Positions 7,272 through 39,531 of a stretch of DNA of 61,505 nucleotides are shown here, piece after piece. Under the pieces are notes generated by a model. It did no database searches. It saw nothing but the letters and a program-made list of their open reading frames with translations, and was not told the origin of the DNA. The first letter of the stretch is position 1, and each line of letters starts with the position of its first letter. The stretch is from Candidatus Pacearchaeota archaeon. GTDB lineage: Archaea > Nanobdellota > Nanobdellia > Pacearchaeales > UBA284. The stretch spans positions 1 to 61,505 of the forward strand of contig JAPLYB010000015.1 of NCBI GenBank assembly GCA_026395795.1, given 5' to 3'. The position numbers and the translations under genes were made by a program.

Positions 7272-7308
7272 GGAAAGTAAGAAAAGTATTTAATGAAGGA
7301 TTAATAAG

Positions 7309-8007
7309 ATGAAACTCATAAAAACAATAAACTATAAATTAACAGAAGAAACACTCGAGAAAGATATTGATAAATTTATTGAATTAGCAAAAAAAGGGCA
7401 TTATCATATGGATAAAATGTATCAAAATGAGGGATTAAAAATAATAAAACAATACTTCAAGATATTAAATGAAAAATTTAAAAATAATGAATTAGAAGAA
7501 TGCAAAAGATGCTACCATAAATTAATCCTTTTTTTACTAATAGCGTCTAGTGGAGAAGATGATTTATTTGATTACAACGACCTTTTAGCAAAAATTAGCA
7601 ATGACTTTGATCATCATATCCAAAATTATTTTATTTGTCTTGTAAAAACCTGCGATATCGATGAGCTGACAGATAAAATCTCTGAATATGCCGCCTCACT
7701 AGATATTTACGGATTTGATTCTGATAAAGAAATTTTGTTAGAAAGTTTAAGTAAGGAGCAGTTAGATAAACTTGAGGAGAAAATGCTTGCAAAAACTCTG
7801 GGCATGACTAAAAAAGATGAAGATAAACAGGGGGTTGTTTATTTTTTAATGAATATAGCAGAAGTACGAGAAGATAAAGAAAAATATCTTAAGCTATGTG
7901 AGAGATTTAAGGGAGTTTTGACTGATAAAGAACTTGAATATTTGAGAGGAGAATATGAAGAAAACAAGATAATAGCTGAAAGATTAAAAATGTTGGGGAA
8001 AGTGTAA
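7309..8007 (+). CDS. hypothetical all-alpha protein, member of the 5050-10266 operon
   Basis: 232-aa ORF, 37 nt after the DUF2075 gene and ending 1 nt before the next start. No recognisable motif. Confidence 0.6.
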   Translation: MKLIKTINYKLTEETLEKDIDKFIELAKKGHYHMDKMYQNEGLKIIKQYFKILNEKFKNNELEECKRCYHKLILFLLIASSGEDDLFDYNDLLAKISNDFDHHIQNYFICLVKTCDIDELTDKISEYAASLDIYGFDSDKEILLESLSKEQLDKLEEKMLAKTLGMTKKDEDKQGVVYFLMNIAEVREDKEKYLKLCERFKGVLTDKELEYLRGEYEENKIIAERLKMLGKV

Positions 8008-8008
8008 A

Positions 8009-8512
8009 ATGAAATCAATTAAATTTACAGATTCTGAATTGAAATTCATTTATCAACTGATAAAATCTTTTGAAGAAGAGATGGTTCAAAATCCCTCGGA
8101 ATCTTGGGAAATGGACTATTACGATGAACCTCTTATTGATAGAAAACCATTAAAAAGCATATTGAAAAAGGTGGAAAAGTCCTTGCCTAAAAACAAAAAG
8201 GAAGAGATCTTAAAATCTTTTTTAAGAAGAAAGTATAGCACATTCAATAATGAAATTGATGAAAAGGTTTATTCTATTTTAGAAAAAGCATTCATGCAAT
8301 TAAAAACAGTTGAAATAAAGTATTTTAATACTGAAAGTGCTGAGTTTAGCAAGAGAAAAATTGACATTTATTATAAATCAAGGAAACATATCATCGCTTA
8401 TTGCCATTTAAGAAAAAGTATAAGAAAATTTAGAACAAGTAGAATAGCATACGCTAAATTAACAGATGAAAAGTATAAAATACCAGACGATTTTGATAAA
8501 AATAAATATTGA
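8009..8512 (+). CDS. WYL-domain protein
   Basis: The C-terminal half TVEIKYFNTESAEFSKRKIDIYYKSRKHIIAYCHLRKSIRKFRTSRIAYAKL fits the WYL pattern (..Y....R.i.P......yl.ayC...r..R.Fr..RI). Confidence 0.7.
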   Translation: MKSIKFTDSELKFIYQLIKSFEEEMVQNPSESWEMDYYDEPLIDRKPLKSILKKVEKSLPKNKKEEILKSFLRRKYSTFNNEIDEKVYSILEKAFMQLKTVEIKYFNTESAEFSKRKIDIYYKSRKHIIAYCHLRKSIRKFRTSRIAYAKLTDEKYKIPDDFDKNKY

Positions 8513-8531
8513 TAAGATAAAGAATTAAAAA

Positions 8532-9107
8532 ATGAAAATGGATAAAGAAGCAATGAAAAAAGAAGGGACAAGGGGCATGAAAGAATTTGATTTGGCTTGG
8601 AAAGAATTTTTTAAAAACAAGCTCCATCCGAAAAATGACGAGGAAGAAAAGAAAGAATTAGAAGAATTTGGTCATTGGTATAATTATGTTAGAAAACAAA
8701 GTGATACTGGAAAAACCCCTGCTGAAATGTATAAAGAAATTTATGGAAAAGAGCCCTCACAAAACCTGCCCATAAATTCTCAAGAACCAGGCAGAATGAT
8801 TAATTTTGAATGGGATGGTGACTACAATGAAAGTGATCTCAAGGGTGAGGATGAATTAGATGAATCTCAAGAAGGGGCTGTTGTTGTTGCTACTGAAATA
8901 TTTGAGGACAGTTGGAAACGAATAAAACAAGAAATAGATGGGGTTGACAAGAAAGAAGCATGTAAGTATTCGTTTATACTGGGATTTTTAGACTACCTAA
9001 AAATGATGGACAAGAAAGCAGAACTGATGGAGAAAAAAATGAAAAAGATGTCTAAAGAAGAGATTGAAAAATTTATTGATAATTTTAAAGAATATAAAAA
9101 GAATTAA
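8532..9107 (+). CDS. hypothetical acidic protein, member of the 5050-10266 operon
   Basis: 191-aa ORF in the tight same-strand array. No family assignable. Confidence 0.55.
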   Translation: MKMDKEAMKKEGTRGMKEFDLAWKEFFKNKLHPKNDEEEKKELEEFGHWYNYVRKQSDTGKTPAEMYKEIYGKEPSQNLPINSQEPGRMINFEWDGDYNESDLKGEDELDESQEGAVVVATEIFEDSWKRIKQEIDGVDKKEACKYSFILGFLDYLKMMDKKAELMEKKMKKMSKEEIEKFIDNFKEYKKN

Positions 9108-9118
9108 GGGGAGAACGA

Positions 9119-10000
9119 ATGCCAACATTAATTGATCAAGAAGCAGAATTATTTTATAAAATTATGAATCAGTTAATCTATTTCGCTAATTCAAGATTTA
9201 ATTTAGTTAATAATTTTCCAAAACCAGAAGAAGGAACTTGGGAAGAAGAAGATATTCAAAAAATAACAGAAAAGATTTTTTCAAAGCCCGAGATAATTCT
9301 CTCTTTTTGCAGTGAAAATCCGGCTATGCTAAATAAAGATGAAATTGAAATTGCAAAAACTTGGAAAACTTTTGTAAAAGATAAGTTTATGGTATTTACT
9401 AATAAGGATAAAACTATATTTTTTAGTTCTGAAAAAAACCCTAAAGCTTATGAAGTTTGGGGGATACGTAATACTTTTTTTGATTTATTGCCTTTTGAGC
9501 CAATAATGCTTGAAGCGATATTAGTTCCATTTAGAGAAAAGATAGTTTACAGTAGCTCATTAAGACTCTTTCCAATTTCATTCGGAGGAGGGTATAAACG
9601 AAGTTTAGAAAGAGATTTTCAGATATCAAAAAATAAATTTGGCATAATCTCCTCATTAATACAACCAATAGAAGAAAAAAAACAATCTGATGAAGATTTG
9701 CTGAGATTTTATTTAAAAAATAAACAAAATCGAGAAGAATTTTGGGAAGAGATTAATGAAATTTTAAAGAAAGATGGTTCTCTTAAAAATGTTTATCATA
9801 ATGAGATAGGAAAATCTTATGTGAAAGAGGTAAAAAAAATATTTTCAGATATCGGCATAAAAGAAGGATATTTTGCGATTGTAAATTCACAAGTTATAAC
9901 TTCTGGGAAATCTGAAAATGAAGTTAAAGAAAGATTAAAAGAAATCTTGCCTGAAGATAAGATAATCTCTGCACATATTTTTAGATATCAGAAAAAATAA
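9119..10000 (+). CDS. hypothetical protein, member of the 5050-10266 operon
   Basis: 293-aa ORF starting 11 nt after the previous stop. No recognisable motif. Confidence 0.6.
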   Translation: MPTLIDQEAELFYKIMNQLIYFANSRFNLVNNFPKPEEGTWEEEDIQKITEKIFSKPEIILSFCSENPAMLNKDEIEIAKTWKTFVKDKFMVFTNKDKTIFFSSEKNPKAYEVWGIRNTFFDLLPFEPIMLEAILVPFREKIVYSSSLRLFPISFGGGYKRSLERDFQISKNKFGIISSLIQPIEEKKQSDEDLLRFYLKNKQNREEFWEEINEILKKDGSLKNVYHNEIGKSYVKEVKKIFSDIGIKEGYFAIVNSQVITSGKSENEVKERLKEILPEDKIISAHIFRYQKK

Positions 10001-10026
10001 GATAAGCAAAGAAGGGGGAGGGAAAA

Positions 10027-10266
10027 ATGACTGAAACTTGCAAAACTTGCCGTGAACAATTTGATTCTGGAGTTTGGTTAGTCCCACAATTCAATGATGA
10101 AAAAGATCTATTATTTTGTTCAAAAAAAAAATGCAAAAAAGGTTATATAAAAATGAAGCTTGAAAGAATCAAATGGAACTATCCAGATTATTATCAAAAG
10201 ATAATAAAACATAAAAAAGAGAAAGGAGTTATCAGCTTTAGTTTAGGCAGGATAGAAAAGAGATAA
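10027..10266 (+). CDS. small Cys-rich (possible zinc-ribbon) protein, last gene of the operon
   Basis: 79 aa with CKTC...x24...CSKKKC. Confidence 0.45.
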   Translation: MTETCKTCREQFDSGVWLVPQFNDEKDLLFCSKKKCKKGYIKMKLERIKWNYPDYYQKIIKHKKEKGVISFSLGRIEKR

Positions 10267-10520
10267 TAATCTAAAAAAGATGGCAGAAAAACAAGAAGAA
10301 GAATTGAGCGAAGAGTATGTATCCACAATACCTAATGAGCCAATCAGTATTAAAGAAGATGAAATAAGCACGAAGATAGGAGAATTGACGCAGGAATGGA
10401 TAGAGAGTGAAACTTGGAGATAATGAAGATAGAGATAAAGAACGACTGTGGAAGCTAAAAGTTTATCACTAATCATTAAAATTATTTTTGGTTCTACAAT
10501 GCGTTGCGGCCTTCGTTCTC

Positions 10521-10545
10521 GCTTCGCCCTGCTGGGCTCGCTCTT
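10521..10545. repeat. left copy of a 25-bp perfect direct repeat flanking the Fic gene
   Basis: gcttcgccctgctgggctcgctctt occurs here and again at 11682..11706. The similarity extends imperfectly upstream (cggcct...). Confidence 0.9.
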
Positions 10546-10553
10546 CAAAAATC

Positions 10554-10653
10554 TTCCTGCCCAAATGGTGCAGTTTTTATCAGATTTTCCTGCCCAAAAC
10601 GTACATTAAAAGGATGTTATCGAGGATAAAGCTTAAAATAATTCCTGCCCAAA
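10554..10653 (+). promoter_or_regulatory. three TTCCTGCCCAAA boxes upstream of the Fic gene (candidate operator or iteron set)
   Basis: ttcctgcccaaa is at 10554-10565, 10587-10598 and 10642-10653. The first and third copies extend to ttcctgcccaaatggt. The last copy ends 37 nt before the Fic start. Confidence 0.6.
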
Positions 10654-10690
10654 TGGTAACATTTTTAAACTCCAAGTTATAATCTATTCT

Positions 10691-11647
10691 ATGAGCTACT
10701 TAGAACAGAAGGAAGTTAAGACAAAAACTTATGTGTCTTTTGTAAAAAAAATCACTTTTATGAAGCATCAGCTAGTCATCAAAAAATACATCGGCCCAGC
10801 AGACAGCAAGATAAACAAAGAAAAATATCTTTTGGATAACCTCCAAGAGATTTCACATAAAGAATTCCAATTTAGACTGAAGTATCTGGAACCAATAAAA
10901 AACCGGCTGTCTTATAACGCTTCTCTTCCAGAAGAGGTTGAGAAAAGAACAATAGAGATAAACAACTTGATTGAAGGAAAACAGTGCACTAATCTAGTTG
11001 ACAGTGAATTCGCAATGGAGTTCACATTCAATTCCAATAACATAGAAGGCTCAAAAATTCCTCCAGACGTGGTTAGGCAGATAGTAGAAACCGGGAGCAC
11101 TAAATATAAGAACAAGAACGAGATCAGGGAAGTCAAGAACTCGATTACAGCCTTAAATTATCTAAAAGGATCCTTTAGATTCAATATTCAATCAATAAAG
11201 AAGCTGTATCATCTATTGACTCATGAACTTTATATGGAGAACAAAATCCCTTATCCCCGAGGATTCAAAAAAGTAAAAAATATTATTGGCAACTCAACAA
11301 CGACCCCCCCCGAAGAGGTGGCAAAAGAGCTGGATAAACTGCTTTCTTGGTATAAGGACAATAAAGACAAAATCCATCCACTAATCCTTGCTTTTGAGTT
11401 TCATAGAAGGTATGAATCCATCCATCCTTTTTTAGATTGCAATGGCAGAACAGGAAGGTTGATTATGAATAAAATTCTTATTAACGCAGGGTATTTTCCG
11501 ATAGTGATCTATAAAGAGAATAAAACTGCTTATTTCAATTACTTAGAGAAATCAAAAGAAGGAAAAACAAAAGTTTGTTACCAGTTTATGCTAGAACAAG
11601 CCAGAAAAACATATGATTATATCCTGCATATATTAGATAAATACTGA
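10691..11647 (+). CDS. Fic/DOC family protein (AMPylase-type fold)
   Basis: Fic motif variant HPFLDCNGRTGRL, against the canonical HxFx(D/E)GNGRxxR. Typical length of 318 aa. Confidence 0.85.
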   Translation: MSYLEQKEVKTKTYVSFVKKITFMKHQLVIKKYIGPADSKINKEKYLLDNLQEISHKEFQFRLKYLEPIKNRLSYNASLPEEVEKRTIEINNLIEGKQCTNLVDSEFAMEFTFNSNNIEGSKIPPDVVRQIVETGSTKYKNKNEIREVKNSITALNYLKGSFRFNIQSIKKLYHLLTHELYMENKIPYPRGFKKVKNIIGNSTTTPPEEVAKELDKLLSWYKDNKDKIHPLILAFEFHRRYESIHPFLDCNGRTGRLIMNKILINAGYFPIVIYKENKTAYFNYLEKSKEGKTKVCYQFMLEQARKTYDYILHILDKY

Positions 11648-11681
11648 TCTTAAAATTATTCTTTCGGCCTCACTCCGCTCG

Positions 11682-11706
11682 GCTTCGCCCTGCTGGGCTC
11701 GCTCTT
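11682..11706. repeat. right copy of the 25-bp direct repeat flanking the Fic gene
   Basis: Identical 25-mer to 10521..10545, beginning 34 nt after the Fic stop. Confidence 0.9.
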
Positions 11707-11734
11707 TCCTTGCGGACGCCAAAAGATTTATAAG

Positions 11735-11758
11735 CTATAGCCACTATAGTTGCTATAG
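11735..11758 (+). promoter_or_regulatory. three CTATAG palindromes at 9-bp spacing (candidate antitoxin operator)
   Basis: ctatag is at 11735, 11744 and 11753, ending 9 nt before the start of the RHH-like gene. Confidence 0.5.
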
Positions 11759-11767
11759 GTCAAGAAC

Positions 11768-11974
11768 ATGGATACCACAACAATTCAATTAAGCAAGGAA
11801 ACAAAAGATAAATTATCTTCATTTGGAGTGAAAGGCGAAAGCTATGATATTATTCTCAAAAGAATTTATTCTCTAGCAGTAAAAGAACAGCTTAGAAGCT
11901 TTTTGATGTCATCAGAAGGATTCATGCCAATCGAAGATGCCATAAAAGAGGCAGATAAAAAATGGCCAAAGTAA
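11768..11974 (+). CDS. ribbon-helix-helix/CopG-like antitoxin candidate
   Basis: 68 aa with TTIQLSKETKDKLSSFGVKGESYDIILKRIYSLA. It overlaps the downstream toxin-like gene by 13 nt. Confidence 0.55.
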   Translation: MDTTTIQLSKETKDKLSSFGVKGESYDIILKRIYSLAVKEQLRSFLMSSEGFMPIEDAIKEADKKWPK

Positions 11975-12303
11975 GCATCTCCGAAACTTTAAAAGATGAA
12001 ATTCTGAAAAAATTCAAAGAAGAATCCAAGATAATATTCAGACAAATGTATTCTTTGGCAGAAAATCCGCATAAAGGCAAGATTCTTGGTCAAATTGGTG
12101 GAATTGTAATCAAAGAAATAAGATATAAAACTTTCAGATTTTATTTTATCACAGATGGTTATAAATTGAAGATAATGAATGAATCAAGCTTAACAGATTT
12201 ATTAATAAGATTTGTGAGGATGTCTGATAAAAAAGATCAACAAGAGACTATTGAAGGGATTAGAAAGATACTCCTTAAGTTTGGACCAGAAGGGCTTGAT
12301 TGA
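11962..12303 (+). CDS. RelE/ParE-superfamily toxin-like protein with a C-terminal extension
   Basis: 113 aa with ..LAENPHKGKILG...EIRYKTFRFYFITDG.. Paralogous to 29950..30273, including the shared SDKKxQQETIxxI tail. Confidence 0.5.
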   Translation: MAKVSISETLKDEILKKFKEESKIIFRQMYSLAENPHKGKILGQIGGIVIKEIRYKTFRFYFITDGYKLKIMNESSLTDLLIRFVRMSDKKDQQETIEGIRKILLKFGPEGLD

Positions 12304-12321
12304 AATATTAAACAAAAATTT

Positions 12322-13032
12322 TCAATCAGTCCATTCTTCCACGCTCTTTGCCTTCAAATCTTTAGAAGAATATAATCTTTCGACTTCCTGGCTGATGGTA
12401 GAGACTGCAGATTTATCTTCAACTTTTATTGCTGTTTCGTAATGGGTTTTGAATCCACTGTAAGTTAAATTAACTGAGCCGAGAAACGCTATTTCTTCAT
12501 CTATTATGAAAATTTTTGAGTGAATAAGCTCTGTGCTTCCTGGATTTTTTCCAGAATGGGAATCAAATACTTTTATCCTGAAGATTGGCTCAGATTTATG
12601 CGAGTAAGGGCTGATTAAAAAATAAGACAAAAGAGTCAACACGCTGATTGATAATAACAAAGTTGATATGAATCCTGGTATGAGATTTGTAAAAGAGAAT
12701 ATCAAAGATATTAGAGAAACGCCAAATAAGAAGATAGATATTTTAGATATGTTCTTTTTTAGTTTTTCTTTTTTCTCATCATAAACCTTTTCTGTTTTTA
12801 TTAAATCTGAAACAGAAAAATCAGAATAAGAATTACTTTCTATTTTATCACAGGTAATTAGAGTTACTTTCACGCCTTTTTTATGCAAAGTAATAAGATC
12901 TTTTATATAATTTGCAGAAAGGTAAGGGGAAACAATTTTTACAGATTTTTTAGCGTTTTTTATGGTCTCGTGAATCTCTTTTCCAGCTTGTCTTCCAATA
13001 TAAATCTGGTCTTTATTGCTGTTAGTTATCAT
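12322..13032 (-). CDS. single-HKD phospholipase D/Nuc-family protein with an internal two-helix membrane insertion
   Basis: HKD motif LIHSKIFIIDEEIAFLGSVNLTYSG. The hydrophobic stretch ISIFLFGVSLISLIFSFTNLIPGFISTLLLSISVLTLLSYFLI lies between the N-terminal half and the HKD half. Confidence 0.75.
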   Translation of the reverse strand: MITNSNKDQIYIGRQAGKEIHETIKNAKKSVKIVSPYLSANYIKDLITLHKKGVKVTLITCDKIESNSYSDFSVSDLIKTEKVYDEKKEKLKKNISKISIFLFGVSLISLIFSFTNLIPGFISTLLLSISVLTLLSYFLISPYSHKSEPIFRIKVFDSHSGKNPGSTELIHSKIFIIDEEIAFLGSVNLTYSGFKTHYETAIKVEDKSAVSTISQEVERLYSSKDLKAKSVEEWTD

Positions 13033-13036
13033 TCTT

Positions 13037-13396
13037 TTATTTCCCTAACTTTTCCCCCACCTTCTTAAATAACTCTGAATGTTCTTTTCTCACTTTTTCT
13101 ACTGTTTTTATAAAAGTAGTCATGGTACCATCACATTCTTCTTTCATATATCCTTCAAAATCTTCTTTTTTGTCGGGAGCAAAATGATGACAATCAGAAC
13201 ATAAGGTGATGAGGTTATCTAATTCGTCTTTTCCACCATAACATGATGGAACAAGGCGGTGCGCTTCTAGAATCTTAGATGTTTTATCCCGAACTTTACA
13301 TTTCTGACATGTAAAATCATCTCTTTCAAATGTTTTTTTCTTCAGTGTTTGATTCCTTTCTTTCATTCTAACTCCCCTCCTTTCTCGTTCTCCCAA
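13037..13396 (-). CDS. HNH endonuclease
   Basis: CQKC...[28 protein letters not shown]. Its start overlaps the recombinase 3' end by 34 nt. Confidence 0.8.
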
Positions 13397-15366
13397 ATGT
13401 CTTCTATATCTTCTTTTTCTATTGCTTCCTCGGGATGTTCTTCTAATTTTTCCATTATTTCTTCTTGCTTAACCTCCTTTTCTTGTTTTATTTCATTTTT
13501 CATCAATGCATCGATTGGACTTGGAACCTTTTTGATTTGTTCTGATGAGATATGGGTGTAAATCGCCGTCGTGTCTAGATTAGAATGGCCTAACATTATT
13601 TGGATCATCCTGATATCTATGCCGTCTTCTAAAAGATGTGTAGCGAAGCTATTGCCAGTAATAAATATTTTTTCATTAGATTTTGCAATCCATGTTTGAT
13701 TTTTGGTTGAAGGACACCAAACTAATCCCTTAAAGTGTTCTTTTTTTATATCTCCTCTGTCAAAGTAAATATCACATTCGGATTTCTCTGTGATATATGT
13801 TCTATAATATACTTTATCTTTGTCTAGGCAATATCCATGTAAATTGTTTTTCTTAAATCCAATCAATGTTCTTTTTCCGAGAAGACAGCAAAGGGCTCTA
13901 AAAAAGTCTATCTTCTTCTTATCTTGCAAGGTCAATTCATTACAAGTATAACCATCCTTTCTAGATGTGCCGTCCCCCATCATTATACACTTAAATAATT
14001 CTTCTAGCTCTTCTTTTTTTAAGGAAAGTAATTTATACTTTGGGGTTTTATCTATATTAATCCATTCAAATATCCAATTATGATTCTTCCCTTTGACCTT
14101 GCCCCTATTCCCCCCATTTATTAATCTAAAGCATATAAAATCCCCCCTCTCTTTTTCCGTAAATGGGATTTTTCCACTGATTAACAAATTTCTTATGTAA
14201 TCACATTTTTTTGTATTTGCCTTACAACTCTGAACTATAACAATTTCTATGTGATTTTTCCTGTTCGAAATATTTCCATCTGTTAAAATCCAGCCAATAA
14301 TCCCTGCTTTTTCTTTGGTAATTGACTTTGGGCCGTCATAAAAAGAAGAAAGTTTGTGCTTGATTAACCTTATCCCTCTAATTTTTAAAAGCTGATTAAA
14401 ATTTATAAGTTCCCAGTTTTTCCAATCAGTAAAAACCCTATAATTTTTCTGTCTTTCATAACCTATCTTTAAAACTCCTTTGTGTTCTGCAGTGCATAAA
14501 TAATCAAGGCAGTAGTTTTTAATCCTAAGAAGATTATCTTCTATATTATACTGAAAAATGTCTAGAATAGGATTGGTTTCAATTTTATCCTTTTTAAGAT
14601 TATAAGTAAATACTAAATCTCCTTTCTTAATTTTATCATGTTTTTTCCAGCCATCAACGGTCAAAATTTCTGTATCATCTGTTACGCAATGCCTCAAAGT
14701 ATGCGGATGAACCTTTTTCTGGATTCCTGTTTTAGCTAGGGCATTGCCCATTATCTTTTCTATATTTCTTGTGGAAAGCCGACCTTTTGGACCTGAAAAT
14801 AGGAATTCTTGTGAACTGTTCTTCTGAAGTTCTGCTTGTTCTTTAATTTCCTGGAGTAAGAGGTCAGGAATATTGAACACACGATCTTTTTTGCCTTTTG
14901 CTTTTCTAGCATAACCTATTTTTTCATCAAAATGAAGATCTTGAACTTTCAAGTTAGTTAATTCTGAAACTCTAAAACCACAAGCATAGATCAATGAGAG
15001 CATTAATTTGCTTTTTTTGCTAGTAATGGCATTTAGAAGTGTTTTAACTTCTTCTTTTGTTAAGACAGTTGGAATTTTTGTTTCTTTTTTAGGTCTTTTA
15101 ATACCTTGCGTGATGTCTTTTTTAAGAATATTTAAAAAACCATACTTTATTGCGGCTAAAAACAAGATAGCTGAACTTGATGATCTTTCACCAAGCTTCT
15201 CAGCCATAAATAACTTTAGATCATCTTGATTAATCTGTTCTGGCTCTTTTTTAACAAATTCAATGAGCTCTGAGTTTGCTTTGGTGTAGTTCCTTATTGT
15301 ATACTCTGAGTTCTTTGATATTTTGAGCTCTACTTCTAACTTTTTGAGGAATTCGGATTGATTCAT
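13363..15366 (-). CDS. XerA/XerC-type tyrosine recombinase interrupted by an intein
   Basis: SAM-like N-domain ([17 protein letters not shown]), catalytic Arg box [14 protein letters not shown], then HPHTLRH. A 346-aa insert follows, after which the sequence resumes [33 protein letters not shown] (catalytic Tyr). Confidence 0.9.
13651..14688 (-). mobile_element. intein (residues C227-N572 of the recombinase) with a LAGLIDADG homing-endonuclease domain
   Basis: Block A is [14 protein letters not shown], block B is TAEH, the LAGLIDADG motifs are [14 protein letters not shown] and [13 protein letters not shown], block F is [15 protein letters not shown], and block G is IFITGN followed by +1 Ser. 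The Cys codon is confirmed at 14686-14688. Confidence 0.85.
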
Positions 15367-30273: not shown

Positions 30274-30338
30274 ATTTCTTTGTTGTTTTTAATCTTTTCT
30301 TAGAATTTTCTGTCTCTTAAGGTTCAAAGAAGGGGTTA

Positions 30339-30433
30339 CGCCCAGACCAGGAATCGAACCTGGAGATCCTTGCGGAAACGAGTTATCTTGTTTTGAATTC
30401 GAGACTCGCGCCTTACCGTTGGGCCATCTGGGC
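30339..30433 (-). tRNA. tRNA-Ser (anticodon CGA) with a 13-nt intron (30385..30397) at the canonical 37/38 position
   Basis: The reverse complement folds as acceptor GCCCAGA/TCTGGGC, anticodon stem CGAGT/ACTCG, loop CT-CGA-A[ttcaaaacaagat]A, a long variable arm TTTCCGCAAGGATCT, T-arm CCAGG-TTCGATT-CCTGG, and discriminator G. Confidence 0.85.
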
Positions 30434-30503
30434 ATAATTATTAAGACAGAGCAAATTTAAAAGTCTTTACACACGCGCCTGCGGGCGCGCGTGGCGCATA
30501 GGC

Positions 30504-32769: not shown

Positions 32770-33001
32770 CCCCCCCCTGTCGTTTCTCATGGAGAAAGTG
32801 TTAAAGTTTATAAAGGATTTGGGGTTATTTTATTTTAGTTTATATTTATAAATATTTATATATTATATTATATATATTATAATTATATTATTATATTGAT
32901 TGTTTTGTAATATACTATATCCCTTTATAATATTGGGGGTTTTCTTATTTTTTGCGACGAGGGTTCCGTGTTCATTTGTTGTTCCATGAGAAATGGGGGT
33001 G
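32770..33001. other. chromosomal replication origin (oriC): two inverted ORB-like boxes flanking an AT-rich unwinding element
   Basis: tccatgagaaa is at 32983-32993, followed by tGGGGG. Its exact reverse complement tttctcatgga is at 32783-32793, preceded by a C8 run at 32770-32777. Between them, about 32826-32935 is almost pure A/T. The element lies directly upstream of orc1/cdc6. Confidence 0.8.
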
Positions 33002-33057
33002 TACCTCTCCTTTCCAGTACAACAAATTTTATAAACTACATTACTTGCTATAATTCT

Positions 33058-34362
33058 ATGACAAAAGAAAAAGAGTTGATAGTGGATGGACAAAATAGGG
33101 GGAAAGAATATTCTGCAGGGGAATCTAGGGATTCTGGTGAACAGGCAAAAAATAACATAGATTCTATTTTTAACGCATTTATTAAACACACAATTTTCAA
33201 GAATAAGTTTGTTCTTCAATCGAATTACGCTCCCGAAAACATCCCCCATAGGGAAAAACAAATAAATCAGATTGCCCCCATTGTTGCTCCAAGCCTTAGA
33301 CTTGAAAGACCATCCAATCTTTTCATTTATGGATTGACTGGAACTGGAAAAACGTTGGTGGTGCAATATATAAGAAATCAACTTTTTAAAAAAGCAAAGG
33401 ATCAACAAGTTTGTGTCGTAATGCCTTTTATTAATTGCAAATTAAGGAAGGTTGCAGATACAGAATATCGAATTCTTGCTGAATTAATCAAAAAACTTGG
33501 AGGAAAGGTGGCAGCTACTGGCTTGCCAACGGACCAGTTATACAAAAGATTTGTAGATATTGTTGATGAGAAGAAACAGATTATTATTGTCGTGTTTGAT
33601 GAAATTGACCAGGCTGTAAAAAGGATTGGAGATGAATTTCTTTATAATTTTACTAGACTAAATACAGAGCTCACACAGGCTCAAATTTCCATGATTGGAA
33701 TATCAAACGATCTTAAGTTTCTCGATTCTCTTGATCCAAGAGTGAGAAGTTCTCTTGGTGAGGAAGAAATCCTTTTTGCACCCTATAACGCTCTTCAACT
33801 TCAAGATATCTTGAGACATAGGTCTAATGAAGCATTTAAGAGTGGGATTTTAGATAACGGAGTTATTGAAAAGTGCGCTGCTTATGCTGCTAGAGAACAT
33901 GGAGATGCTAGAAGGGCTCTTGATTTGTTGAGGATTTCCGGAGAATTAGTTGAGAGAGATGGAAAAAAGAAGATCACTTTAGATTATATAGACAAAGCAA
34001 AAGAAAAAATGGAAGCTGATAAAATATTAATTGCTGTTGAAAATCAGCCTAAACAATTTCAACTTGTACTAATCTCTGTTTTGCAACTTTATAGACAGGC
34101 ACTAAAGGAAAATGAAAGTATGATATTTACGGGAGACATTTATAATCTTTATAGAGACTTTTGTGTAAGAACACAAACAGAATGCTTAACTCAAAGAAGA
34201 GTTAGCGATATTATTGCTGAGTTTGATATGCTCGGCTTGATAAATGCAAAGGTCATAAGCAAGGGAAGGCATGGGAGGACAAGAGAAATAAGGGTGGATT
34301 TGTCAGAAAATCTGAGAGAAAAGATAAATATGATTTTGATGAATTCGCTTAATCTAACTTAG
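33058..34362 (+). CDS. cdc6: Orc1/Cdc6 replication initiator
   Basis: Walker A IYGLTGTGKT, Walker B IIVVFDEIDQ, sensor GISND, the ARREHGDARRALDLLR motif and a C-terminal winged helix. I chose the ATG at 33058 because the longer ORF from 32968 runs through the right ORB box. Confidence 0.9.
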   Translation: MTKEKELIVDGQNRGKEYSAGESRDSGEQAKNNIDSIFNAFIKHTIFKNKFVLQSNYAPENIPHREKQINQIAPIVAPSLRLERPSNLFIYGLTGTGKTLVVQYIRNQLFKKAKDQQVCVVMPFINCKLRKVADTEYRILAELIKKLGGKVAATGLPTDQLYKRFVDIVDEKKQIIIVVFDEIDQAVKRIGDEFLYNFTRLNTELTQAQISMIGISNDLKFLDSLDPRVRSSLGEEEILFAPYNALQLQDILRHRSNEAFKSGILDNGVIEKCAAYAAREHGDARRALDLLRISGELVERDGKKKITLDYIDKAKEKMEADKILIAVENQPKQFQLVLISVLQLYRQALKENESMIFTGDIYNLYRDFCVRTQTECLTQRRVSDIIAEFDMLGLINAKVISKGRHGRTREIRVDLSENLREKINMILMNSLNLT

Positions 34363-34428
34363 TCTATAAAGAATTTAATCAACTCTTAAAGAGTTAAATT
34401 TGTGCCAGTTTAAGGCACCAAACAGAAA

Positions 34429-36042
34429 ATGCAGTTTTTAAGGGAATGCTTGAGTAGAGGATATCTTTTTGAATCGTCTCTGTTGCAACTCTTCTATGAT
34501 TCTGGATTGGGAGACAATGAATTAAGTGAGATATCAACCTTTTTATTACAACTAAATCCCCCAAAAATTGTCACAAAGACTTTCTTCTATGAAAATGTGG
34601 AAAAACTTCTGAAAAATGAATTAAGTGAAAGCTCTAGGGTTTTTTTGGAAAGGAACAGCAAGATTCCAGCTACTGTGGAAATTGAAAAAATAAAAGAGAA
34701 TGGAAATCCAGAAAAAAACTTTGAAAAAGAGAAAGACAAACAAAACAAACAATCTTCTTTTGATCCAACAAATTTTATCAATCCCTACTCTTACAAGCAT
34801 TTTGAAGATGTAGAGACAAGAGATTACATAATTAACACAAAAAAAATATCTGTTCAAGATTTTGTTGGAGTTTACAGAAGCAGATTTAATTTTTTAAAAG
34901 AAATTTTAATGGGGAGAGGATTGCAGAATCTAACCAGCATAAATAAGATTTCTAATCAAAAAAGAAATATTTCTATAATCGGAATAGTATTTAACAAGAG
35001 GACTACAAAAAATAAAAATGTTTTATTAAATATTGAAGATCCAACAGGGCAAATCACCGTTTTAATCAGACAGGATAAATCCGAGCTTTTTGAAAAAACA
35101 AAATCGCTTCTTCTTGATGAAGTAATAGCAGTGAGTGGGGTTGGAAATAATGAAATAATTTTTGCTAATGATCTTATTACAGTAGATATTGTAAAAGAAG
35201 TAAAACACGCTCAAGAAGAGAGTTATGCTGCATTTATTGCAGATATGCATGTTGGTTCATCAAAATTTCTTCAAGAAAACTTTTTAAGATTTGTATCTTG
35301 GTTAAACGGAGAAATCGGTTCTGAAAAACAAAGAGAAATTGCAAAAAAAGTAAGATACCTCTTCATTTTAGGAGATAACATCGACGGTGTTGGGGTATAT
35401 CCAAAACAGGAATCAGAACTTTTGATTAAAGATGTCAGGGAGCAGTATAAACTTTTAGCAGAACTTTTATCAAAAATAAGAAAAGATGTTATCATCTTCA
35501 TGTGTCCTGGAGGAAAACACGATGCAGTCAGGCACATTGAACCACAACCAAAAATACCAGAAGATATGGCCCCAGACTTATACAAAATTGAAAACCTGAT
35601 TTTAACAACAAATCCTTGTGAAGCAAAAATAGCAGGCACCAAAACCTTTCCTGGATTTGATGTGCTTATGTATCATGGTGACTCTTATGATTACTTTATG
35701 GATAGTGTAGAGTTTCTTAGAGTAAATAATGCAAAACTAAAACCAGATATGATCATGCATCTATTACTTAAAAAAAGACATCTCGCACCTTCCCACACTT
35801 CTACAACTTACTTTCCAGGAGAGCAGGACATGTTTACAATAGAGCGAATTCCAGATATCCTTGTTTCTGGGCACATTCATAAAAGTGCTGTTTCATACTA
35901 TAACGGCGTTCTGACAATTTCTTGTTCATGTTGGCAATCTAAAACTGCTTTACAAGAGAAATTTGGACATGAACCAGACCCCTGCAAAGTCCCCCTCTTA
36001 AATTTGAAAACAGGAAAAATAAATATCTTAGATTTTAGCTAA
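34429..36042 (+). CDS. DNA polymerase II (PolD) small subunit DP1
   Basis: An OB-fold region followed by the calcineurin-like phosphoesterase blocks FIADMHVGS, ILGDNIDGVG, PGGKHD, YHGD and SGHIH. Its position between cdc6 and DP2 supports the call. Confidence 0.88.
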   Translation: MQFLRECLSRGYLFESSLLQLFYDSGLGDNELSEISTFLLQLNPPKIVTKTFFYENVEKLLKNELSESSRVFLERNSKIPATVEIEKIKENGNPEKNFEKEKDKQNKQSSFDPTNFINPYSYKHFEDVETRDYIINTKKISVQDFVGVYRSRFNFLKEILMGRGLQNLTSINKISNQKRNISIIGIVFNKRTTKNKNVLLNIEDPTGQITVLIRQDKSELFEKTKSLLLDEVIAVSGVGNNEIIFANDLITVDIVKEVKHAQEESYAAFIADMHVGSSKFLQENFLRFVSWLNGEIGSEKQREIAKKVRYLFILGDNIDGVGVYPKQESELLIKDVREQYKLLAELLSKIRKDVIIFMCPGGKHDAVRHIEPQPKIPEDMAPDLYKIENLILTTNPCEAKIAGTKTFPGFDVLMYHGDSYDYFMDSVEFLRVNNAKLKPDMIMHLLLKKRHLAPSHTSTTYFPGEQDMFTIERIPDILVSGHIHKSAVSYYNGVLTISCSCWQSKTALQEKFGHEPDPCKVPLLNLKTGKINILDFS

Positions 36043-36063
36043 AAATCCAATAAAAAACAAAAA

Positions 36064-39000
36064 ATGCAGCAATATTTTAAAAAAATAGCAGAAAGTGTGA
36101 AAAAGACATATGATGTAGCGAATCTGGCAAGAGCAAAAAATTTAGATCCTGCTGATCATGTTGAAGTTCCTATTGCTTCTTCACTTGCAGAAAAAGCTAT
36201 TGGGTTAATTGCGACAATCTACCCTCAGCTTGATCAAAAAGTTGTTGCAAGAATCCTTGAACTGGAAAAAGAGTATGGTTCACTGGACCCTTGTGTTTCT
36301 TTTAAGATTGCAGAAGAAATCGCGAAAGAAAAATTTTGTAAATTTAAGGATTTAATGGAAGCGATTGATGCAGGCATTAGAGTTGGTTTTGCTTATAATA
36401 CTCTTGGAGTTGTTTCTTCTCCGATTGAAGGATATACTGGACTAAAACTTGAAAAAACCGCAGAAGGAAAAGATTATTTTAAGGTTTATTTTTCTGGACC
36501 AATAAGAAGCGCAGGAACAACTGCTTCTTGTGTTGTCCTTATGCTGATTGATTATTTAAGAGAAACCTTTGGTTTTGCTAAATATGATCCTACTGAGTTT
36601 GAAGTTAAGAGATATGTTACAGAGAATTACGACTATCATACACGTGTTAACAACTTGCAATATCTCCCTACTGAAGAAGAGATAGAGTTTCTAGCAAGAA
36701 ATATCCCAATTCAGATTGCTGGAGAACCAACTGAAGATCGTGAAGTTTCAAATTATAAGGATCTTCATAGAGTTGAAACTAATTTTATTAGAGGAGGGAT
36801 GTGTTTAATTTTTTCAGAAGGATTAGCACAAAAAGCAAAAAAAGGGATTAGGATGTTGAAGAGAGTTCAGGAGAAGGGCTTTCAGACGACTGGTTGGGAT
36901 TTTTTGGATAAATATCTTGAATTACACAAAAAAAGAGAGGCTGGAAAGGGGGAGGTTACTGCTACGTATATGAATGATCTTGTTGCAGGCAGACCTGTTT
37001 TTTCTCATCCATCAAGGTCCGGGGGTTTTAGATTTAGATATGGAAGATCACGGGTGAGTGGATTTTCTGCAACTTCTATCCATCCTGCAACTATGGCTAT
37101 TACTGGCTGTTTCCTTTCTACTGGAACTCAACTGAAACTTGAAAAACCAACAAAAGGATGTGTTGTGACTTGTTGTGAAGAATTAGACGGCCCAATTGTT
37201 AAACTTAAAGATGGAAGTGTTAAAAAGATTAAAACTTTCGAAGAAGGTAAAAGAATATATCCAGAAACAGAAGAAGTGATTTATTTGGGGGATCTTCTTG
37301 TTTCATTGGGAGATGTCATTAACAGAAATTCGGTGCTTCTTAAATCAGGATATGTTGAAGAATGGTGGGAATTGGAATTGAAAAAAGAAAATCCTGATGA
37401 AAAAGTGGATAAATTTCACGTTTCTCTTGAGCAAGCTACTGCATACTCTGAAAAATATAAAATCCCCCTGCATCCAGAGTATATTTTCTATTGGACACAA
37501 ATAAAATATGATTCTTTTTTGTCTTTATTAGATTGGATTGTTCATTCTAGGACTGCAGATGGAAAGTTAATCTTGCCGTATAACAGGAGTGAACAAGAAA
37601 AATTTGTGAATGCAAAAAGAGCACTTGAAATTCTTGGAGTGGAACATGAGATTTCTACTGAAAATGTTGTTTTGAATGAAGTGAACAGCAAGGCGTTCTT
37701 GATCAATCTTGGAATTGAGGCAGACAAGGATAAAAGTGATTTGAAAAAAGATGTTGAAAAAATACTTTCTATCATAAAACCAGAAGAAGAAGTACTGGGA
37801 AATATAAACCATCTTTCTAAATATAAAATAAAAGATAAAGCTGGAACTTTCATTGGAGCGAGAATGGGGAGGCCTGAAAAAGCAAAGCCAAGAGAATTAA
37901 AAGGATCCCCACATGTTCTTTTCCCTGTCGGTGAGGAGGGAGGAAAGTTGAGAAGTTTTCAAGCTGCTCTTGGAAAAGGCAGCGTCAAATCAGATTTTCC
38001 CCTGAACTTTTGTGAAAACTGCAATAAGGAAACAATTTATCCCGTATGTTCGTCTTGTGGAAACAAAACAAAGCAGATGTATTATTGTTCTGTTTGTGAT
38101 TCTAAATCTTTTTCACCCTTCTGTGGTTTGCATGGCAATTTAAAATCCTATTCAAGTCAAAGAATTAATATCAGAGAGTACTATGAAAATGCTGTTAAAA
38201 CAGCAAAATTAGGAAATAATCTCAAGATTGTTAAGGGAATAAAAGGGACAAGCTCTCAAGCACATATCCCCGAACATTTATCCAAAGGGATTATAAGGGC
38301 TAGTTTTAATTTGCACGTAAATAAAGACGGAACAGTCAGATACGATGTCACAGAACTTCCGATAACTCATTTTAAACCCAAAGAAATTCGAACTAGCATA
38401 GAAAAGCTCGAAGAGTTAGGATACCATAAAGATATTCATGGGGAAAAACTTGAAAATGAGGATCAGATCCTAGAACTTATGCCCCAAGACATAATCCTGC
38501 CTTCTTGTCCTGATCCAGATTCCAAAGATGAAAAAGCAGATGATGTTTTTTTGAATGTCACCCGTTTTCTTGATACTCTGCTTGTTAATCTATATGGATT
38601 AGAACCTTTTTATAAAATTGATAAAGTAGAAGATCTTGTTGGGCATCTGACTGTTTGTATGGCCCCTCATAATTGCGCTGGAGTTATCTCAAGAATTATT
38701 GGTTTCTCAAAAGTACAAGGGTTGATGGCCAGCCCTTACATACATGCTGCTGTGAGAAGAGATTGTGATGGAGACGAGGTTGCTGTGATGTTACTATTAG
38801 ATGTGCTTATCAATTTTTCTAGAAGTTTTCTTCCAGCCCATAGAGGAGGAACGCAAGATGCTCCTCTTCTTTTAAATGCAAGGATAAATGCGGGAGAAGT
38901 AGATGATCAGATTCTTGATTTAGAAGTTGGGCCTTATCCTCTTGATCTTTATTATCTCGCTGAGCAGGGAAAACATTCTTCTGAAGTTGTTTTAGACACT

Positions 39001-39531
39001 GTAAGAAAGAGATTAAAGAATGGAATCGATCCTTTTACAAATATCTATTTTACCCATAACACCCCAGATTTTAATCATGGATGCATAAATTCTTCTTATA
39101 AGGTCTTGCCAACCATGCAAGAAAAAGTTACAAGACAGATGCATGTTTCTGGATTGATACGTGCTGTTGATGCGAGTGATGTTGCAAGGCTTGTGATCGA
39201 GAGACATTTTATTCGTGATATAAAAGGTAATTTTAACAAATTCACACAGCAACAATTCAGGTGTGTCGAATGCAATGAAAAATATAGAAGACCGCCTCTT
39301 GCAGGAAAGTGCATTAAAATTTTAAATGACGGCAGTCTTTGCGGGGGAAAAATACTTTTTACAATTACAGAAGGCTCAATCATAAAATATCTTCAACCAG
39401 CATTGATGTTATCCCAAAAATTTGATCTTTCTCCATATTTAAGACAAAGTTTAGATCTTGTCAGGCAGTCTATAGAAAGTGTCTTTGGAAAGGAGACTGA
39501 GAAACAGCAAGAATTGAAGAAGTGGATTTAA
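36064..39531 (+). CDS. DNA polymerase II (PolD) large subunit DP2
   Basis: 1155 aa with conserved DP2 blocks such as FSGPIRSAGTTAS, GRPVFSHPSRSGGFRFRYGRSR, MAPHNCAGV..RRDCDGDE and the C-terminal Zn motif FRCVECNEKYRRPP. No intein is apparent. Confidence 0.92.
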   Translation: MQQYFKKIAESVKKTYDVANLARAKNLDPADHVEVPIASSLAEKAIGLIATIYPQLDQKVVARILELEKEYGSLDPCVSFKIAEEIAKEKFCKFKDLMEAIDAGIRVGFAYNTLGVVSSPIEGYTGLKLEKTAEGKDYFKVYFSGPIRSAGTTASCVVLMLIDYLRETFGFAKYDPTEFEVKRYVTENYDYHTRVNNLQYLPTEEEIEFLARNIPIQIAGEPTEDREVSNYKDLHRVETNFIRGGMCLIFSEGLAQKAKKGIRMLKRVQEKGFQTTGWDFLDKYLELHKKREAGKGEVTATYMNDLVAGRPVFSHPSRSGGFRFRYGRSRVSGFSATSIHPATMAITGCFLSTGTQLKLEKPTKGCVVTCCEELDGPIVKLKDGSVKKIKTFEEGKRIYPETEEVIYLGDLLVSLGDVINRNSVLLKSGYVEEWWELELKKENPDEKVDKFHVSLEQATAYSEKYKIPLHPEYIFYWTQIKYDSFLSLLDWIVHSRTADGKLILPYNRSEQEKFVNAKRALEILGVEHEISTENVVLNEVNSKAFLINLGIEADKDKSDLKKDVEKILSIIKPEEEVLGNINHLSKYKIKDKAGTFIGARMGRPEKAKPRELKGSPHVLFPVGEEGGKLRSFQAALGKGSVKSDFPLNFCENCNKETIYPVCSSCGNKTKQMYYCSVCDSKSFSPFCGLHGNLKSYSSQRINIREYYENAVKTAKLGNNLKIVKGIKGTSSQAHIPEHLSKGIIRASFNLHVNKDGTVRYDVTELPITHFKPKEIRTSIEKLEELGYHKDIHGEKLENEDQILELMPQDIILPSCPDPDSKDEKADDVFLNVTRFLDTLLVNLYGLEPFYKIDKVEDLVGHLTVCMAPHNCAGVISRIIGFSKVQGLMASPYIHAAVRRDCDGDEVAVMLLLDVLINFSRSFLPAHRGGTQDAPLLLNARINAGEVDDQILDLEVGPYPLDLYYLAEQGKHSSEVVLDTVRKRLKNGIDPFTNIYFTHNTPDFNHGCINSSYKVLPTMQEKVTRQMHVSGLIRAVDASDVARLVIERHFIRDIKGNFNKFTQQQFRCVECNEKYRRPPLAGKCIKILNDGSLCGGKILFTITEGSIIKYLQPALMLSQKFDLSPYLRQSLDLVRQSIESVFGKETEKQQELKKWI

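Follow-up and report, generated by a model that had tools for sequence, protein, structure and literature searches.

Our analysis of a 61,505-nt stretch of DNA, contig JAPLYB010000015.1 of assembly GCA_026395795.1 from a Candidatus Pacearchaeota archaeon (hereafter the window), points to an intein lodged in the active site of XerA, a tyrosine recombinase of the site-specific kind. We consider it very likely that this element, with its nested LAGLIDADG endonuclease, is a genuine, splicing-competent and mobile intein, and the sequence and structure-model evidence presented below suggests that it is probably active. Its host is a DPANN archaeon belonging to the Woesearchaeota/Pacearchaeota, which GTDB places in Nanoarchaeota. 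The xerA precursor gene is matched by the Pfam Phage_integrase and NCBIfam XerA models in two stretches, and the insert lies between these, in frame, separating HPHTLRH from SFATH. The gene and its parts are laid out as follows:

13363..15366, minus strand: xerA precursor gene, one uninterrupted open reading frame (ORF) of 667 codons plus a TGA stop, with N-extein, intein and C-extein in a single frame
14689..15366, minus strand: N-extein, residues 1-226, with a SAM-like DNA-binding domain and the beginning of the catalytic domain
13651..14688, minus strand: intein, 346 aa, precursor residues 227-572, its translation running from CVTDDTEIL (from 227) to KIFITGN (to 572)
14353..14688, minus strand: N-terminal part of the HINT splicing domain, intein residues 1-112, all-beta in the AlphaFold2 (AF2) model
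14644-14688, minus strand: block A, within the N-terminal HINT part, starting with Cys1
14467-14508, minus strand: block B, with TAEH at intein residues 66-69 (Thr66, His69)
13789..14352, minus strand: LAGLIDADG homing endonuclease domain, intein residues ~113-300, alpha/beta in the AF2 model
14266-14310, minus strand: LAGLIDADG motif 1, intein residues 127-141, GWILTD137G with Asp137
13957-14007, minus strand: LAGLIDADG motif 2, intein residues 228-244, MMGD239G with Asp239
13651..13788, minus strand: C-terminal part of the HINT splicing domain, intein residues 301-346
13681-13728, minus strand: block F, with Cys325 at F:4 (precursor residue 551)
C-terminal end of the intein, minus strand: block G, KIFITGN, with Thr344 (G:5), Gly345 and Asn346, followed by the +1 residue Ser573
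13366..13650, minus strand: C-extein, residues 573-667, with Ser573 (+1), His594 (LGHS), the catalytic Tyr603 (IYTH) and an acidic tail

The initial annotation, made from the letters and ORF translations, had placed the insert at 13651-14688 with a length of 346 aa, and the ORF translation gives the same limits to the base. The motifs that it quoted, namely Cys1, TAEH, the two LAGLIDADG motifs, block F, the terminal Asn, the +1 Ser and the penultimate Gly, are likewise all present in the translation.

The recombinase host

Once joined, the exteins match the NCBIfam XerA model NF040815 in one stretch at 229.5 bits (cutoff 220; profile positions 4-262 of 263), whereas the unspliced precursor reaches 204.3 bits, below that cutoff, in two stretches. 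The joined exteins also match Pfam Phage_integrase in one stretch (positions 2-170 of 172), match the XerC and XerD models in a single stretch, and align without a gap across the junction to the solved XerA proteins of P. abyssi (4A8E, E 2e-42) and T. acidophilum (5HXY, E 6e-39), with which they share the alignment string PH.LRHSFATH.LE.GIDIR.IQ..LGHSNL.TT.IYT. Thus, the earlier proposal that the exteins align over the junction with canonical recombinases holds for the curated model and for the two solved structures alike. The catalytic residues of P. abyssi XerA are R135, K160, H226 and Y261 (PMC3646895). The alignment to 4A8E assigns Arg132 (box I), the Lys of the KGKKDR hairpin, and His222 and Arg225 (box II, HTLRH) to the N-extein, and His594 and Tyr603 to the C-extein, such that the full R-K-H-R-H-Y set is present. 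The intein is positioned one residue past Arg-II, directly after the H-x-x-R-H of box II, and thereby splits the active site: Arg-I, Lys, His-II and Arg-II fall on the N-extein, and His-III and the Tyr nucleophile on the C-extein.

A search with the joined-extein protein matched thousands of tyrosine recombinases, the best 120 of which were used to build a hidden Markov model (HMM). These 120 homologues, several of them from Nanoarchaeota, Pacearchaeota or Nanobdellota archaea, are 275-322 aa long, 63-85% identical to the joined exteins, and all devoid of the insert. They read HPH(T/S)LRHSFATH unbroken, with HPHTLRHSFA in 74 of the 120; the collinear HxLRH-SFATH box II that the initial annotation had obtained by removing the insert is therefore an uninterrupted string in intein-free orthologues. 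On this HMM the joined exteins score 500 bits, which is within the 481-521 bits of the 120 proteins themselves and hence marks the gene as an orthologous xerA. The predicted spliced protein is accordingly described here, on sequence grounds, as a full-length XerA orthologous to the products of intein-free xerA genes.

The nearest orthologue, P0025 (85% identity; GCA_964500015.1, locus L001), is intein-free. Locus L001 is collinear with the window from 27497 to 13515, sharing a phosphoribosyl pyrophosphate (PRPP) synthase, an Lhr-type helicase and several small genes, and its translated (tblastx) match to the N-extein breaks off precisely at 14689, immediately ahead of the intein. Intein-free alleles with the same junction, which the initial annotation had suggested be sought in related genomes, are hence at hand in 120 orthologues; the converse idea, that the insert might be a lineage-wide domain, is ruled out by its absence from these closest homologues, one of them in a syntenic locus. 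The archaeal XerA proteins represented by 4A8E and 5HXY have the same domain order and R-K-H-R-H-Y active site as the joined window exteins, an equivalog-level match; characterized archaeal XerA proteins have no intein, whereas the window protein has both an intein and a 50-aa acidic C-terminal tail. This Glu/Lys-rich tail of ~50 aa (13366-13515, minus strand) extends past the end of the XerA model, is common to the window and L008, and is lacking in most orthologues.

The insert as an intein with a LAGLIDADG endonuclease

An AF2 model of the insert, built on 24 homologues, has a mean predicted local distance difference test (pLDDT) score of 90.7 and a predicted template-modeling (pTM) score of 0.90, and is beta-rich in its N- and C-terminal parts, with an alpha/beta region between them. 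In a Foldseek search of the PDB, PI-SceI comes first (E 7e-12, TM 0.61), followed by TliVMA, PI-PfuI, PhoVMA and PI-TkoII, all of them full-length endonuclease-containing inteins; PI-SceI, TliVMA and PI-PfuI match over the whole chain. The free-standing LAGLIDADG enzyme I-DmoI is also recovered (E ~1e-5, TM (target) ~0.6). A profile of ten family members, compared with solved inteins, matches TliVMA (2e-7, endonuclease region), AceL NrdHF (5e-5), Mja KlbA (2e-4) and Spl DnaX (4e-4). The matches to mini-inteins cover blocks A-B and F, with AceL NrdHF and Spl DnaX matching the N-terminal HINT part, and the KlbA alignment sets the family's V-W-C opposite I-Y-D, so that Cys325 comes to stand at block F:4, facing the block F Asp.

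Across relatives there is little or no variation at C1, T66, H69, D137, D239, G240, W324, C325, T344, G345 and N346: Cys1 is found in at least 90% of them, H69 is invariant, C1 and T66 are nearly invariant, and W324, C325, G345 and N346 are invariant in the A2 alignment. The insert thus has the hallmarks of a class 1 intein in the form of a Cys at position 1, a TxxH block B, a C-terminal Asn followed by a +1 Ser and, in the model, a HINT fold; the penultimate His of block G:6, which is usual though not obligatory, is replaced by Gly345. It also has those of a double-motif LAGLIDADG enzyme, with Asp137 and Asp239 in the two motifs and the fold indicated by the I-DmoI and TliVMA matches. By model and sequence, then, the insert is a full-length intein, with a predicted HINT splicing domain into which a double-motif LAGLIDADG endonuclease is nested. 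The intein features claimed for it at the outset are consequently upheld by the splicing blocks, by the intein and LAGLIDADG folds found through AF2 and Foldseek, and by the profile matches to solved inteins.

Distribution and selection among xerA genes

Eight further loci (L008, L012 and L123-L128, with L127 and L128 being fragments) have the same xerA-intein arrangement with identical junctions, and in all eight the blocks and both LAGLIDADG Asp residues are intact. One of these, L012, comes from a Woesearchaeota metagenome-assembled genome (MAG) that serves as a GTDB species representative. Together with the window, the ORF is intact in nine independent assemblies from JGI, ENA and NCBI sources. 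Identities to the window protein are as follows:

L123: intein 88%, extein 91%
L124: intein 80%, extein 53%
L126: intein 77%, extein 62%
L012: intein 79%, extein 61%

The similarities of intein and extein are at odds: four XerA lineages that are only 53-67% identical carry inteins at the same site that are 76-80% identical. Moreover, every intein-bearing lineage has nearer intein-free orthologues; for the window this is P0025 (85%), for L126 it is P0112 (76%), and for L012 it is P0067 (68.5%). An intein that is better conserved than its host and patchily distributed argues for horizontal spread by homing, and from these comparisons we infer that the endonuclease is active now or was so recently. 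The intein is under purifying selection: with 68 synonymous and 48 non-synonymous differences between the window and L008, its ratio of non-synonymous to synonymous substitution rates (dN/dS) comes to 0.125, with 0.076 for the splicing domain, 0.19 for the endonuclease domain and 0.063 for the C-extein. A possible co-conversion signal was also considered, in that the +1 Ser codon is AGY in the window and L008 and TCN in three intein-free alleles; it was discarded as too weak, the other recombinase inteins using TCT, TCC and AGC.

A predicted pathway of splicing and homing

The standard class 1 pathway would fit all the residues present. After translation of the 667-aa precursor, Cys227 would bring about an N-S acyl shift at His226, Ser573 would attack the resulting thioester to give a branched ester, Asn572 would cyclize with release of the 346-aa intein, and an O-N shift would join His226 to Ser573, leaving a XerA of 321 aa whose active site is normal. 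The activity of the recombinase, which presumably resolves chromosome dimers at dif, would be expected to depend on this splicing. The endonuclease, in turn, is predicted to cut intein-free xerA at the site coding for the conserved HPHTLRH↓SFATH (arrows denote intein junctions throughout), with repair copying the intein in; homing at so conserved a junction would result in a patchy, horizontally spread distribution. The splicing chemistry, the endonuclease activity and the dependence of XerA on splicing are all matters that we infer.

The penultimate Gly in place of His, which the initial annotation had singled out, is indeed present; it is no oddity, being the family norm, as 94 of 97 further members end in ..GN. 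There is also precedent for it among phage inteins: the intein of the Bethlehem gp51 recombination directionality factor (RDF) has a penultimate Gly and splices, the G316H change leading to accumulation of the precursor (PMC5050341), and the phage Martik gp66 methylase intein ends in FITGN↓S. The RDF intein was not reached in a search that started from P0024, a relative hosted by a metallophosphatase, and is therefore cited as a precedent for the penultimate Gly and not as a homologue.

Several observations weigh against a splicing-competent, mobile intein. The window intein lacks both the penultimate His and a block F His, the candidates for assisting Asn cyclization. Two of the closest sister inteins have no Cys1, with P0002 (L009:4-1314) having Leu1 (codon TTA) and P0145 having Ala1, and P0018 has Ser1; these three keep block B, both LAGLIDADG motifs, the block F Cys and TGN↓S. 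They would be either splicing-dead or on a non-class-1 route, and the recombinase-intein clade may therefore not be strictly class 1. The insert alone stays below the Pfam thresholds (Intein_splicing PF14890 at 13.2 bits against a cutoff of 35.8, E 0.08; PT-HINT at E 0.05), has no NCBIfam match, and in a single-sequence phmmer search of the PDB retrieves only a PT-HINT toxin (E 0.3). A precomputed PF14890 match is borne by the relative P0009. The intein-profile scan recommended at the outset thus had a divided outcome: the family profile does match solved inteins, but the curated Pfam and NCBIfam models remain below threshold, so that the identification rests on the structure model, the family profile and the splicing blocks. 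With respect to mobility, the endonuclease-domain dN/dS of 0.19 could reflect folding constraint and not nuclease activity. Finally, there is no second tyrosine recombinase within the 61.5-kb window, and a second, intact xer gene may lie elsewhere in the genome.

Alternative explanations

The block F Cys is near-invariant, and we entertain, as an unlikely option, that it serves as an alternative initiating nucleophile in a class-3-like route without the Trp or as a redox partner of Cys1. In the former case Cys325 (precursor residue 551), and not Cys1, would attack the N-terminal junction first, and the N-extein would then pass to the +1 Ser. Class 3 inteins are recognized by the WCT triplet, comprising Trp at B:12, Cys at F:4 and Thr at G:5, and by the lack of a nucleophile at position 1, with the Trp being needed for activation of the N-terminal junction (PMC2807308). 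In the recombinase clade, two of these three residues, Cys F:4 and Thr G:5, are nearly invariant and Ser or Thr occupies +1, and a route of this kind without the Trp would explain the nearest sisters with Leu1 (P0002) or Ala1 (P0145), which like the Ser1 protein (P0018) keep the other blocks. However, Cys1 is present in the window intein; B:12 varies or is Gly across the family and is never Trp; and Cys1 is found in 97 of the 97 further members, several of which have Ile, Ser, Leu or Asp at F:4, implying that the family behaves as class 1. The Ala1 and Leu1 relatives could, moreover, simply be splicing-dead. Formal class 3 membership is ruled out by Cys1 and by Gly, not Trp, at B:12, and we judge even the looser class-3-like route to be distinctly improbable. 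The redox alternative belongs to a broader idea, namely that the intein is conditional, its splicing being gated by redox (e.g., through a Cys1-Cys325 disulfide) or by DNA binding, and that it is retained for a benefit and not as a purely selfish element. The presence of two conserved cysteines, Cys1 and the block F Cys, in the splicing center would be in keeping with this, as would the precedent of the M. smegmatis DnaB intein, whose block F Cys118 forms a reversible disulfide that blocks splicing (PMC6195587). The strong purifying selection on the splicing domain (dN/dS 0.076) could be read likewise, and the RadA and RecA inteins are reported to be substrate- or stress-responsive. A patchy distribution with nearer intein-free orthologues in every lineage is, however, what selfish homing predicts, not a fixed regulatory module, and the same intein family is found in many unrelated phage proteins. 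We accordingly regard conditional splicing as unlikely.

More radically, the insert might be a non-splicing relic, leaving either a dead xerA or a recombinase that tolerates a 346-aa domain in an active-site loop. The missing penultimate His, the sub-threshold scores of all curated intein models and the close relatives without Cys1 could each be taken that way. Yet all the class 1 splicing residues are present and conserved, dN/dS is low in both the splicing domain (0.076) and the extein (0.063), the ORF is intact in nine independent assemblies, and the insert puts 346 residues between Arg-II on one side and His-III and Tyr on the other, both sides being conserved elements of the active site; we hence find a relic very hard to credit. 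A chimeric contig, in which a viral intein was joined to an archaeal xerA in assembly or binning, would have in its favor the metagenome-type source and the absence of the exact window protein from a 15-billion-protein collection. Against it stand the continuous reading frame and the recurrence of the same architecture and junctions in the independent JGI, ENA and NCBI assemblies (L008, L012, L123-L128). The composition of the insert (GC 30%, third-codon-position GC (GC3) 28%) also resembles that of the N-extein (GC 33%) and the whole window (GC 33%), which counts against a chimera, and such an artifact appears to us vanishingly improbable. A mobile class 1 intein thus remains our preferred reading of the insert.

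The wider intein family and its hosts

Among 1.84 billion representative proteins, 3606 relatives of the insert are found at E<=1e-3, most of which match residues 1-346 end to end, inside unrelated host proteins. In the window itself, the insert-family profile matches the insert at E 3e-132 and nothing else; the resemblance is not fortuitous. A census of hosts, based on 67 complete inteins from the best matches, has the following composition:

Tyrosine recombinases, site B (after x-[L/I/F]-R-H, then Ser/Thr): 34 of 67 inteins
Tyrosine recombinases, site A (after the first His, H↓(S/T)(L/F)RH; four residues upstream of site B): 7 of 67 inteins
N6/N4 DNA methyltransferases, with two junction types: 13 of 67 inteins
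Primase-helicases: 3 of 67 inteins
Other hosts, among them a family B DNA polymerase, terminase-like proteins, a metallophosphatase and a DAC-like protein: 10 of 67 inteins

In all, ~40 protein clusters of tyrosine recombinases, mostly virus-like integrases, contain an intein of this family. The site-A inteins, which part the catalytic His-II from x-L-R-H (H↓C...N↓(S/T)(L/F)RH), are seen in P0007, P0008, P0009, P0013, P0150, P0159, P0165 and P0166. A rough neighbor-joining tree unites the recombinase inteins in one clade, with the site-A inteins nested among those of site B at several places. The other intein-bearing recombinases are not XerA orthologues, scoring 31-104 bits on the orthologue HMM at 23-36% identity. 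Those of their contigs that we inspected are viral-looking: small ORFs follow one another in the same direction over long stretches, and RuvB-like ATPases, a D5-type primase and a 5'-3' exonuclease are encoded. IMG/VR viral contigs carry two of the recombinase-intein genes.

Among named genomes of isolates, the nearest relatives are the mycobacteriophage DNA methylase inteins (~22% identity, tblastn E 1e-14, over residues 1-346), which are among the described phage inteins (Kelley et al. 2016, PMC5050341). These inteins (DNMT-1/2, N6_N4_Mtase; Martik gp66) share with the window intein C-L-T-D-D...L-T-P-x-G-W, TPNH, the EVWC block F and FITGN↓S. The Martik gp66 host, in contrast, is a bacteriophage DNA methyltransferase with the junction LYG↓SGFPKS, and the window intein is in a cellular archaeal recombinase.

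Some further members of the family deserve mention in their own right. P0010 (527 aa, on a 110-kb JGI contig) has an intein of the recombinase clade in another host, at GTRH↓C...N↓SAAY; this GTRH/SAAY host resembles what we take to be a conserved motif of a DisA_N/diadenylate-cyclase-type domain, and the protein may be an example of extein switching. A related intein is present at the identical junction TRVGFQ↓C...ITGN↓(T/C)PF(T/S/V)N in a large protein of many candidate phyla radiation (CPR)/Patescibacteria, Gammaproteobacteria and other MAGs as well as viral contigs (L015, L018, L020-L029, L032, L033, L035, L037, L039, L041, L069 and L075). Phage-like polypeptides with two inteins of the family also occur, of methyltransferase, large structural or portal-like, and terminase-like kinds (P0163, P0170 and P0185; L022 and L087).

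Relationship to known inteins and implications

Inteins favor the active sites of enzymes of replication, repair and homologous recombination. Among the solved ones, PI-SceI (S. cerevisiae VMA1), TliVMA, PhoVMA, PI-PfuI and PI-TkoII have the same architecture of a HINT domain with a double-motif LAGLIDADG domain as the window intein (E 7e-12 to 2e-8, TM ~0.6) and share with it Cys1, TxxH and the C-terminal Asn, at a sequence identity of only 9-12%. The window intein differs from them in being smaller (346 aa versus 360-540), in having no obvious extra DNA-recognition region, and in its Gly for the penultimate His and Cys for the Asp at F:4; their hosts are V-ATPase, ribonucleotide reductase (RNR) and DNA polymerase, whereas that of the window is a recombinase. 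The RecA and RadA inteins (M. tuberculosis RecA, Pyrococcus RadA) also lie in an active site, that of an enzyme of DNA recombination which needs splicing for its activity, and they are the basis of the conditional-splicing idea; their hosts, however, are strand-exchange ATPases with the intein in the P-loop region, unrelated to XerA in fold and chemistry, and no sequence relationship was detected between these inteins and that of the window. The class 3 inteins (mycobacteriophage Bethlehem DnaB, M. smegmatis DnaBi1) have in common with it the Cys at F:4, the Thr at G:5, a Ser/Thr at +1 and a phage association, but reside in helicases, terminases and Cas4, and the window intein is set apart from them by Cys1 and the absence of the B:12 Trp.

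Our literature searches, which covered XerA/C/D, phage integrases and PF00589, turned up no natural intein in any tyrosine recombinase, the retrieved reports being of engineered split-intein recombinases or unrelated co-mentions; this coverage is incomplete, with InBase lying outside it. No integrase or Xer host is mentioned in a large survey of prokaryotic inteins (PMC4760082) or in two phage intein surveys; that of the mycobacteriophages uses 'integrase' only regarding the RDF protein (PMC5050341), and the word intein is absent from a review of archaeal tyrosine recombinases (PMC8371274). The suggestion of the initial annotation that this class of host gene is undescribed is therefore borne out in the literature covered; in sequence data the window gene is not unique, given the ~40 recombinase clusters with an intein. 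The element is itself a mobile intein of a known kind; its novelty lies in the host family, in the two sites within H-x-x-R-H, and in the connection that it makes, in DPANN archaea, from viral integrases to a cellular XerA.

Thus, the site-specific tyrosine recombinases (Xer, phage integrases, Cre-like) can be added to the intein host families, with two independent insertion points in one catalytic motif, H↓xLRH↓S. A single intein clade is shared by viral integrases and, in genome-reduced DPANN archaea, a housekeeping recombinase of the cell, which makes a clear example of extein switching and virus-to-cell movement. Should XerA need splicing, chromosome dimer resolution would depend on a protein-splicing step, possibly a regulated one; were the redox switch to be true, a DPANN archaeon would have XerA maturation, and through it dimer resolution and cell division, under post-translational control. 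As a natural meganuclease, the endonuclease would be directed at the most conserved DNA segment of tyrosine recombinase genes, and the intein marks a position at which Cre- or Xer-type enzymes tolerate a splicing insertion. The intein also explains why such genes are called hypothetical or miss the XerA model cutoff: public records leave these proteins unnamed or label them 'hypothetical protein'.

Neighboring genes and chromosomal setting

Directly following xerA is a gene for an HNH endonuclease:

13037..13366, minus strand: HNH endonuclease gene, 109 aa, Pfam HNH E 6e-7, its ATG overlapping the xerA TGA (ATGA)

An HNH gene follows the intein-bearing xerA in three of six alleles (the window, L008 and L126, with 82% identity to the window homologue in L008 and 63% in L126) and the intein-free xerA in none of three; no such homologue was found after the intein-bearing genes of L012, L124 and L125 or the intein-free ones of L001, L010 and L011. 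The HNH identity (63%) follows the similarity of the exteins and not that of the inteins. This gene may encode a second, free-standing homing endonuclease associated with xerA.

The region of the window from ~7300 to 13400, between xerA and a conserved gene for an SLFN-like/AAA_30 helicase, is not syntenic with L001. It encodes WYL-domain, Fic/DOC, PLD-like (NgoFVII-type) nuclease and HNH proteins, and thus constitutes a variable island, defense- or mobile-genetic-element-like in content, immediately downstream of xerA. Elsewhere, the window codes for Orc1/Cdc6, both PolD subunits, Hef, glycyl-tRNA synthetase (GlyRS) and PurF, indicating that the region is core archaeal chromosome. Scanning with the family profile detected no other intein of the family within the window, and there is none in the PolD large subunit (1155 aa), a protein that commonly hosts inteins. 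The genes for Orc1/Cdc6 and then the PolD small and large subunits (32968-39531, plus strand), ~18 kb from xerA, form a typical archaeal replication-origin neighborhood. A 97-nt tRNA (30338-30434, minus strand) scores above the Rfam threshold, and ARAGORN assigns it a four-base 'anticodon' and no name; it is probably an archaeal tRNA with an intron.

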